From Escherichia phage vB_EcoM-606R7: a stretch of DNA of 38,458 bases. Position 1 is the stretch's first letter. Every line of letters begins with the position of its first letter. This document shows, piece after piece, positions 16,689 to 16,998 of this stretch. A program made the translations under genes and the position numbers. The notes beneath the pieces were generated by a model, which had not been told where the DNA came from, did no database searches, and saw only the letters and a program-made list of their open reading frames with translations. The stretch lies in the sequence record ON470580. One strand, 5' to 3'.

Positions 16689-16763
16689 TGGAGCGGGCAG
16701 CGGGAATCGAACCCGCATCATCAGCTTGGAAGGCTGAGGTAATAGCCATTATACGATGCCCGC
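16689..16763 (-). tRNA. tRNA-Gly (anticodon UCC)
   Basis: Hand-folded cloverleaf: acceptor GCGGGCA/TGCCCGC, anticodon stem TCAGC/GCTGA, loop CTTCCAA, T-loop TTCGATT, CCA encoded; matches recalled glyT-type sequence. Confidence 0.8.
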
Positions 16764-16766
16764 ATA

Positions 16767-16842
16767 TGGTGCCGACTACCGGAATCGAACTGGTGACCTA
16801 CTGATTACAAGTCAGTTGCTCTACCTACTGAGCTAAGTCGGC
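16767..16842 (-). tRNA. tRNA-Thr (anticodon UGU)
   Basis: Hand-folded: acceptor GCCGACT/AGTCGGC, anticodon stem ACTGA/TCAGT, loop CTTGTAA, T-loop TTCGATT, CCA encoded. Confidence 0.8.
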
Positions 16843-16844
16843 AC

Positions 16845-16921
16845 TGGACCGCCACCGGGGACTCGAACCTCGCACACTCAACTTAAAGGGTTGACGCTCT
16901 TTCCTGATGAGCTAGTGGCGG
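16845..16921 (-). tRNA. tRNA gene with an atypical anticodon loop (CCUUUAA; best guess anticodon UUU, Lys)
   Basis: Sits in the array with 2-nt spacers. Acceptor CCGCCAC/GTGGCGG (C1-G72), TAGCTCA D-arm start, T-loop TTCGAGT, CCA encoded; C at position 33 and one T-stem mismatch. Confidence 0.5.
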
Positions 16922-16922
16922 T

Positions 16923-16998
16923 TGGTGGCCCTTGCTGGATTTGAACCAGCGACCTGGCGATTATGAGTCGCTCGCTCTCACCACTGAGCTAAAGGGCC
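16923..16998 (-). tRNA. tRNA-Ile2-like (gene anticodon CAT; ileX/ileZ type, alternatively elongator Met)
   Basis: GGCCCTTTAGCTCAGTGGT...CGACTCATAATCGCC...GGTTCAAATCCAGCAAGGGCCACCA resembles recalled E. coli ileX. Confidence 0.75.

Follow-up and report, generated by a model that had tools for sequence, protein, structure and literature searches.

We analysed a 38,458-nucleotide (nt) stretch of DNA from Escherichia phage vB_EcoM-606R7 (record ON470580), referred to here as the window, and found in its late region an array of four transfer RNA (tRNA) genes whose second member has an atypical structure and the anticodon UUU (the odd tRNA). On sequence comparison we regard two points as settled. 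The array is a recombined variant of the ileZ-argN-argO island of Shiga toxin (Stx) and other lambdoid phages, and the odd tRNA is a tRNA of the phage argN/Arg scaffold with a switched anticodon, unrelated to the host tRNA-Lys. As to its function, we tentatively prefer, at somewhat below even confidence, the reading that the UUU member may be a working spare tRNA-Lys that is insensitive to the tRNA-cutting nucleases of the host.

The four genes, identified with ARAGORN, span 16689-16998 in a lambda-like Escherichia coli prophage. All of them lie on the minus strand; in the direction of transcription they follow one another as CAU, UUU, UGU, UCC, with the odd tRNA second (Table 1). A first-pass annotation of the window had placed the array at exactly these coordinates, which ARAGORN confirmed; the spacers, described there as uniformly 2 nt long, are A (1 nt), GT (2 nt) and TAT (3 nt) in transcription order. 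Each gene encodes its CCA end, and each scored above the gathering score of the Rfam tRNA model RF00005 (29 bits), which served as the threshold for array genes. The proposed identities of the Ile2-like (CAU), Thr (UGU) and Gly (UCC) members were borne out by the anticodons in ARAGORN and by matches to ileZ, thrU and glyT, and all three members have U33. Slot 1 was identical across the gene to ileZ of VT2-Sakai, phi330 and PPompW, and matched K-12 ileX at 68 of 76 positions; tRNA-Ile2(CAU) decodes AUA after lysidine modification. The Thr gene was identical to K-12 thrU (76/76) and the Gly gene to glyT (75/75), and their flanks showed no homology to the host operon. Recent capture of both genes from thrU-tyrU-glyT through deletion of tyrU, with TAT made up of T and AT from the host flanks, was rejected because Thr-TAT-Gly is a widespread phage module: at least 110 viral contigs have this junction, which stands in several contexts and often with phage-specific alleles. 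T5 was likewise rejected as a source of the tRNAs: its tRNA-Lys is 56% identical to the odd tRNA, and its Thr, Gly and Ile2 tRNAs visibly differ from those of the array. In RefSeq, where the array is annotated in about 500 E. coli genomes, the NCBI pipeline lists its members as tRNA-Ile, -Lys, -Thr and -Gly. For phage vB_EcoS-689R5, which has an identical sequence, the GenBank record annotates Met, Thr and Gly and omits the odd tRNA.

The odd tRNA reads CCGCCAC-UA-GCUC-AUCAGGAAA-GAGC-G-UCAAC-CCUUUAA-GUUGA-GUGUG-CGAGG-UUCGAGU-CCCCG-GUGGCGG-U-CCA. It has C1-G72, C33, the anticodon UUU, U73 and a single T-stem mismatch (A51xC63); 20 of the 21 cloverleaf pairs are intact, as are G18G19, the T loop and the encoded CCA end. 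The C1-G72 pair, C33 and the loop CCUUUAA had all been correctly noticed in the first-pass annotation, and its best guess of UUU for the ambiguous anticodon agrees with the Lys(ttt) call of ARAGORN. A shifted reading of the loop, with the turn at U34 and an anticodon UUA that would read the stop codon UAA, was rejected because, in a loop of 7 nt, this anticodon would have a single base on its 3' side, and because nothing supports it. The cloverleaf energy (-25.5 kcal/mol) was about equal to the minimum free energy (-25.0 kcal/mol); minimum-free-energy folding of the single tRNAs was otherwise uninformative, as is usual for tRNAs.

Comparison with the ileZ-argN-argO cluster, which the first-pass annotation had suggested, was the key to identifying the scaffold. 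The odd tRNA is 80.5-84.4% identical to argN of Stx phages in an alignment that runs the full length, 88.3% identical to the tRNA-Arg(UCU) of E. coli Br_190_kylling (Br190) and 61% identical to host lysT. The C1-G72 pair does not vary within the argN-type scaffold, and U73 was present in 20 of 20 sequences of the scaffold alignment (A2), the closest relative, Br190, having G73. The marks earlier taken as signs of a diverged tRNA are thus partly inherited from the scaffold, whereas the pair of changes U33C and C35U, relative to the Arg(UCU) version, is specific to the odd tRNA, and C33 was seen in every copy of it. Its low Rfam score is also a property of the scaffold, since argN itself scored 54.8 bits in VT2-Sakai and 43.0 bits in phi330. 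With respect to lysine identity, the odd tRNA has the anticodon U34U35U36 and lacks the discriminator A73, which is replaced by U73; A20 is retained.

The same array of four slots, but with a tRNA-Arg(UCU) in slot 2, occurs in E. coli Br_190_kylling and in 14 IMG/VR contigs. This sister tRNA shares with the odd tRNA the anticodon stem UCAAC/GUUGA, the acceptor stem and the C7-G66 pair, and its anticodon loop is CUUCUAA instead of CCUUUAA. The shared stem and the differing loop indicate that the window tRNA is the Arg(UCU) scaffold altered by U33C and C35U; it differs further by U63C, which makes the T-stem mismatch, by G73U and by a few loop changes. The one-step intermediates on this stem (U33 with UUU, and C33 with UCU) were not found in 2.9 million viral contigs, which yielded only chance non-tRNA matches, indicating that U33C and C35U always travel together. 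Relative to argN, stem pairs 7-66, 27-43 and 30-40 have changed on both sides, with G-U intermediates for two of them. These compensated changes were considered as a sign of selection on the UUU tRNA and rejected as such, all three being present in the Arg(UCU) sister; they reflect structural constraint on the scaffold and not on its UUU derivative.

We then assessed how widely the island occurs. The argN-type scaffold was found in 2,132 of 5,426 complete E. coli genomes, and a late-region tRNA island in some form is present in about 39% of them. The version of the odd tRNA in the window had 279 records at ≥99% identity and 472 at 95-99%, that is, about 750 E. coli records at ≥95%, and the whole 501-nt region was present in 509 genomes. 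Variants of 96-97% identity are left unannotated by NCBI. With one genome per species, the scaffold was essentially confined to Escherichia and Shigella; the two hits in other species are metagenome-assembled bins and are probably contaminated.

The modularity of the island was examined in two layout surveys. Among 120 contigs carrying the ileZ 3' end, 61 had the layout ileZ-argN-argO, 29 had ileZ-argO, about 16 had ileZ-UUU-Thr-Gly, 2 had ileZ-UUU-argO, and 1 had Thr, an ileZ-like tRNA, Arg(CCG) on the argO scaffold and Gly. In both ileZ-UUU-argO contigs, the UUU tRNA has a D-stem deletion and falls below the Rfam threshold. The second survey comprised 110 usable IMG/VR loci anchored on the Thr-TAT-Gly junction. 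Thr and Gly stood alone in 48 of them, slot 2 held the UUU tRNA with C33 in 40 and Arg(UCU) in 14, four loci (L179, L193, L205, L226) had a slot-2 tRNA with the 6-nt loop CCAGGU, and four (L184, L190, L214, L229) had a diverged remnant with the loop CAUUUAA (UUU, A33). This A33 remnant has an extra nucleotide after the D stem, no CCA and no ARAGORN call. The anticodon loop of slot 2 seems especially prone to change. In two of the 40 UUU/C33 arrays (L201, L244) the order is Ile2-UUU-UUU-Gly, with a thrU-type scaffold bearing G35U and A26G in slot 3; judged by its scaffold, G35U is another way, independent of the first, in which the island has gained a UUU anticodon. Phage Gly(UCC) genes outside the lineage of the window mostly have C6U together with G66A, a compensated acceptor-stem pair, which speaks for structural selection on the phage Gly gene. 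At L025 (1974-2491, minus strand), Thr(UGU) is followed by about 210 nt matching the Rfam small RNA (sRNA) STnc100 (60.3 bits), an ileZ-like tRNA, the argO scaffold with CCG, and a diverged Gly(UCC) with a compensated acceptor-stem change.

Recent work shows that the anti-phage nucleases of E. coli act mainly on Lys(UUU) and Thr(UGU); according to the studies cited here, the anticodon UUU is a target of AriB, PrrC and P2 Old, and UGU of AriB and P2 Old. AriB, of the PARIS system, cuts host tRNA-Lys after U36AAUC and before A41, and cleavage is abolished by U39A and impaired by A41C and U16C; T5 neutralises PARIS with its own Lys, Thr and Asn tRNAs, and phage tRNA-Lys variants rescue infection from PARIS, which host tRNA-Lys does poorly (PMC12409363). 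PrrC cuts tRNA-Lys 3' of U33 (PMC2610378), and in the presence of PrrC170, infection is restored more effectively by phage tRNA-Lys genes than by the host tRNA-Lys (PMC11555353). The classic factor of anti-lambda exclusion, P2 Old, cuts through anticodon stems in which CNG motifs are paired at 28-30 and 40-42, cleaving ThrU first and also Lys; phage Thr tRNAs resist it through an altered motif and a shortened stem, and host thrU gives little or no protection (PMC12445682).

We compared the array with these determinants and found that the odd tRNA is changed at all mapped cleavage determinants of AriB and P2 Old, whereas the window Thr is not. The odd tRNA has U36AAGUU41, that is, GUU instead of UCA at 39-41, and C16 where the host has U16. 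Its anticodon stem, C28A29A30/U40U41G42, contains no CNG motif on either strand and no C40, and C33 replaces U33, the nucleotide after which PrrC cuts. VT2-Sakai argN keeps CAG/CUG, a paired CNG motif. The window Thr is the host allele, with both CNG motifs and a 5-bp stem. Sister arrays carry other Thr alleles: all 14 arrays with Arg(UCU) in slot 2 have a Thr with U16C and U20C, and further alleles have UCAUC or UCACC at 39-43, where changes at 42-43 disrupt the 3' CNG motif and cost the stem two base pairs. Variant alleles occur at L143, L147, L149 and L154 among others, at L137 (E. coli M9), and at L144-L146, L158, L159 and L246; the Thr tRNA of T5 also has AUC at 41-43. By their sequences, the variant sister alleles match the published resistance determinants for PARIS AriB and P2 Old. 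Some of them are unannotated by NCBI, as if decayed.

In the mechanism we propose, Q-antiterminated late transcription would cross the island, so that tRNA levels should rise during lytic growth, and Ile2, Thr(UGU) and Gly(UCC) would top up the minor tRNAs for AUA, ACA and GGA. Lysyl-tRNA synthetase would charge the UUU tRNA, a step proposed on the ground that lysine identity resides mainly in the anticodon UUU. The charged molecule would then serve as a spare tRNA-Lys with a body foreign to the enzymes that kill infected cells by cutting tRNA-Lys(UUU). Several observations favour this reading, beginning with the altered cleavage determinants of the odd tRNA and the variant Thr alleles of the sister arrays. 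The loop of the odd tRNA is that of host tRNA-Lys except at position 33 (CCUUUAA versus CUUUUAA), and its cloverleaf and CCA end are intact. A UUU anticodon arose on more than one scaffold (argN with C33 at 40 loci, the A33 remnant at 4, thrU with G35U at 2), arrays with the UUU form outnumber those with Arg(UCU) (40 versus 14 loci), and codon usage gives no reason for a UUU tRNA. More broadly, and with a little less confidence, we suggest that the phage may have rewritten the anticodon of its own Arg tRNA (UCU to UUU) and added U33C at the PrrC site on a scaffold already lacking C40 and the CNG motif, the sites on which the Toprim nucleases PARIS AriB and P2 Old act, and that the island could be an evolving counter-defence cassette whose anticodons and arms track host tRNA-cutting immunity, and not only a supplement for rare codons.

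A number of points weigh against a working spare tRNA-Lys. U33 is almost universal in elongator tRNAs, and a C at this position should impair the U-turn and decoding. In T5, the tRNAs of experimentally validated resistance keep U33, indicating that C33 is not needed to evade AriB. The odd tRNA has U73 in place of A73, which contributes to lysine identity, and keeps A20, the main determinant for arginyl-tRNA synthetase (ArgRS), an enzyme that also needs C35 (PMC9976931). Since the companion Thr is the cleavable host allele, it adds dosage only, not resistance, and should itself be cut. The compensated stem changes are common to the Arg(UCU) sister and thus predate the anticodon switch, so they carry no information on later selection. 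Across 29 array haplotypes, the UUU slot had 10 variable sites against 5-8 in the others, a difference that is not discriminating. Decayed relatives are common, as seen in the D-stem deletion below the Rfam threshold and in the unannotated 96-97% variants, and the change from Arg(UCU) to UUU cost the phage a reader of its most over-represented codons (AGA/AGG). Most of these points would equally suit a relic, in which C35U destroyed arginine identity and the gene, non-functional or crippled by C33, A51xC63 and U73, hitch-hikes in an array where only Ile2, Thr and Gly work. This explanation has about one chance in three in our judgement and is nearly as likely as the spare tRNA-Lys. Only two loop changes distinguish the odd tRNA from the Arg(UCU) tRNA of an array that is otherwise the same; the odd tRNA breaks the U33 rule, its score of 44.4 bits compares with 65-74 bits for the neighbours, annotators of phage 689R5 left the gene out, related copies are visibly decaying, the diversity of the UUU slot is like that of its neighbours, and AAA is not in codon demand. 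A relic is harder to reconcile with the intact cloverleaf, G18G19, T loop and encoded CCA, with a cloverleaf energy at the minimum free energy, and with a low score that the scaffold shares (43.0 bits for phi330 argN). Moreover, the UUU form outnumbers the presumably functional tRNA from which it descends, neither single-step intermediate appears in the 2.9 million viral contigs, and UUU anticodons recur on other scaffolds in these arrays.

Two further explanations would give the UUU tRNA a role in decoding. We compared codon usage between the 21 late open reading frames (ORFs) of the window (4,741 codons) and 42 annotated K-12 core genes (14,748 codons), a comparison called for by the first-pass annotation, which had proposed that the tRNAs supply A-ending codons for AT-rich late genes. 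The late genes proved not to be AT-rich (GC content 52.4%, host core genes 52.8%), nor are they enriched in A at third codon positions (0.193, host core 0.177). Among 61 codons, the most enriched in late genes were AGG (8.7-fold), AGA (5.4-fold) and CGG (4.2-fold), at ranks 1 to 3, followed by AUA and GGA (2.59-fold each, ranks 4 and 5), UCA (2.5-fold, rank 6) and ACA (2.18-fold, rank 7), whereas AAA was not enriched (1.02-fold, rank 29). The expected bias therefore exists for three members and not for AAA: codon supplementation fits the Ile2, Thr and Gly members and does not fit the UUU member. That all four tRNAs, Lys(UUU) included, simply raise the supply for A-ending phage codons is accordingly an unlikely explanation. 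The 2.2-2.6-fold enrichment of AUA, GGA and ACA speaks for it, and early genes are AT-richer (47.7% GC), with AAA at 50.0 per thousand codons versus 34.0 in the host sample; with its own predicted promoter, the array could serve early genes too. However, at least six genes for tRNA-Lys(UUU) are present in the host, the lysT locus holding five, and the strongest deficits, AGG, AGA and CGG, which are the codons served by the Arg tRNAs this array has lost, are left unserved. The major capsid gene (8705-9910), which encodes the most abundant late protein, contains no AUA, no ACA and only 3 GGA, with 35 Lys codons out of 400. Very improbable, in our view, is a specialised decoding role, in which the UUU tRNA would tune a -1 frameshift at A AAA AAG that yields the GT fusion, or would keep arginine charging and insert Arg at Lys codons. 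Gene G, for the tail-assembly chaperone, ends at 5865-5880 (minus strand) and is followed by gene T at 5563-5853. Its end reads ...GTT AAA AAA AAG TAG with T in the -1 frame, the G/GT programmed frameshift probably uses the slippery heptamer A AAA AAG, and a tRNA-Lys(UUU) would decode both slippery codons. But slippery sites of the form A AAA AAG are common and function with the tRNA-Lys of the host, and the pairing of this site with the odd tRNA is a co-occurrence in one genome only. For arginine charging, A20 is kept, whereas C35, which ArgRS also needs, is lost.

As to the genomic setting, the window is a lambdoid prophage whose head genes are of the HK97 type and whose tail genes are of the lambda type; the features around the array are listed in Table 1. 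As proposed in the first-pass annotation, the array lies between Q and the lysis genes, downstream of a late promoter-like element and a terminator-like hairpin with a T-run. The late leader gave full-length but sub-threshold matches to IsrK (22.7 bits) and IsrJ (24.5 bits), which are sRNAs of Salmonella prophage late leaders (pR' leaders), and is consistent with an analogue of the tR'/6S-type leader that would be read through by Q-modified polymerase. The promoter-like site of the array stops 9 nt before the first tRNA, and this TTGCAx-17-TATTAT-9 nt layout upstream of ileZ keeps its position in otherwise diverged phage contexts. The predicted terminator between the array and the holin gene would stop transcripts begun at the array's own promoter, and the array may thus form a self-contained unit of promoter, tRNAs and terminator inside the late operon. 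The inverted repeat just after tRNA-Gly has a diverged counterpart after Gly in L025 and in the arrays with the 6-nt loop. Both inverted repeats of the window occupy the interval where Stx phages carry stx.

Table 1. Coordinates of the tRNA array and of neighbouring features in the window.
Feature	Position	Strand	Basis
tRNA-Ile2, anticodon CAU, same as Stx-phage ileZ	16923-16998	minus	ARAGORN (called Met, cat); Rfam 72.5 bits
Atypical tRNA, anticodon UUU, loop CCUUUAA	16845-16921	minus	ARAGORN Lys(ttt); Rfam 44.4 bits
tRNA-Thr(UGU)	16767-16842	minus	ARAGORN (tgt); Rfam 73.8 bits
tRNA-Gly(UCC)	16689-16763	minus	ARAGORN (tcc); Rfam 64.9 bits
Antitermination protein Q gene, 229 amino acids	17208-17897	minus	ORF list; identical Ecol_881 region annotated bacteriophage antitermination protein Q
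Putative pR'-like late promoter, TTGCAA-17-TATATT, overlapping the Q end	17196-17224	minus	consensus scan; role assigned from position
Short late leader, about 70 nt, ending in GC hairpin and T-run	17119-17192	minus	hairpin 17121-17144, cccgc-ccacaa-gcggg then tttttt
Putative sigma-70-like promoter of the array, TTGCAA-17-TATTAT, then cctgcgccc	17008-17036	minus	consensus scan
Putative intrinsic terminator (hairpin and T-run) between array and holin gene	16466-16484	minus	
Class II holin gene, first downstream lysis gene	16181-16396	minus	ORF list; annotated relative
Perfect inverted repeat, 11-nt arms, 24-nt loop, just after tRNA-Gly	16637-16682	minus	
Perfect inverted repeat, 16-nt arms, 41-nt loop, between array and holin gene	16557-16629		

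The prophage is integrated at the serU tRNA gene, with mtfA, asnT and the yersiniabactin island as neighbours. It ends at tRNA-Ser(cga) (serU, 31708-31797, minus strand), where the integrase gene adjoins; beyond serU lie mtfA and tRNA-Asn (asnT, 32789-32864, plus strand), and 34135-38458 holds a second integrase gene with the yersiniabactin genes ybtS, ybtX and ybtQ of the High Pathogenicity Island. In the species representative of E. coli, ECMA0423, the same array is located only about 5 kb from serU, indicating that the prophage there is partly deleted. The early region of the window contains sok antitoxin RNA (102 bits) with hokD at 20505-20679 (minus strand), and DicF sRNA (73 bits) is found beside dicB-like genes at 27232-27283 (plus strand); both are typical cargo of Qin/Rac-type lambdoid prophages.

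To our knowledge, the phages whose tRNAs have been shown to counter tRNA-cutting immunity are virulent ones, such as T5, T4 and relatives of these. If the odd tRNA is a working spare tRNA-Lys, a lambda-type prophage carrying Lys(UUU) and Thr(UGU) would bring the temperate phages of a major pathogen species into this arms race, and the switch would be a natural example of a change in tRNA amino-acid identity through anticodon mutation. If it is a relic, the "tRNA-Lys" annotated in hundreds of E. coli genomes would be a mutated arginine tRNA. That P2 Old, of all anti-lambda exclusion systems the one known for longest, kills through cleavage of tRNA-Thr(UGU) and further tRNAs is a recent finding (PMC12445682). 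Phage tRNAs as counter-defence, the ileZ-argN-argO island and the RefSeq annotation of the four genes were already known. Our literature search found no description of the array, of an Arg-to-Lys switch with C33 or of Thr alleles matching the nuclease rules in lambdoid prophages, and a search on ileZ/argN/argO and phage 689R5 in the literature consulted returned nothing.

Among known systems, the closest is the ileZ-argN-argO cluster of the Stx-converting lambdoid phages 933W and VT2-Sakai, which lies between Q/pR'-tR' and the stx and lysis genes. The window array likewise stands downstream of Q and upstream of the lysis genes, has the same promoter-like element upstream, carries ileZ in slot 1 and has in slot 2 a tRNA on the argN scaffold (C1-G72, U73, 80-84% identity). 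It differs in that slot 2 has the anticodon UUU with C33, where argN has UCG, in that argO (Arg, UCU) is replaced by Thr(UGU) and Gly(UCC), in the absence of stx genes and in spacers of only 1-3 nt. The Br190 sister array has the same four slots and the same junctions, but its slot 2 has U33, C35, G73 and a fully paired T stem, and its Thr has C16 and C20. Compared with host lysT, the odd tRNA shares UUU and a loop that differs at position 33 only, whereas the 61% identity does not exceed that found between unrelated tRNAs; lysT has G1-C72 and A73 against C1-G72 and U73, and the anticodon stem and D loop also differ. Like phages with a Thr(UGU) resistant to P2 Old (PMC12445682), the lambdoid phage of the window carries its own copy of the primary target of that enzyme, and alleles of the sister arrays similarly break the 3' CNG motif and shorten the stem, whereas the window Thr is identical to host thrU. 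Like the tRNA-Lys of T5, the odd tRNA has the main-target anticodon of the nuclease, differs from the host at 39-41 and has C16. In contrast, the T5 molecule is a recognisable tRNA-Lys with U33 and A73, from a virulent phage and of proven resistance, and the odd tRNA is a derivative of an Arg scaffold with C33 and U73, carried by a temperate phage and of predicted resistance.

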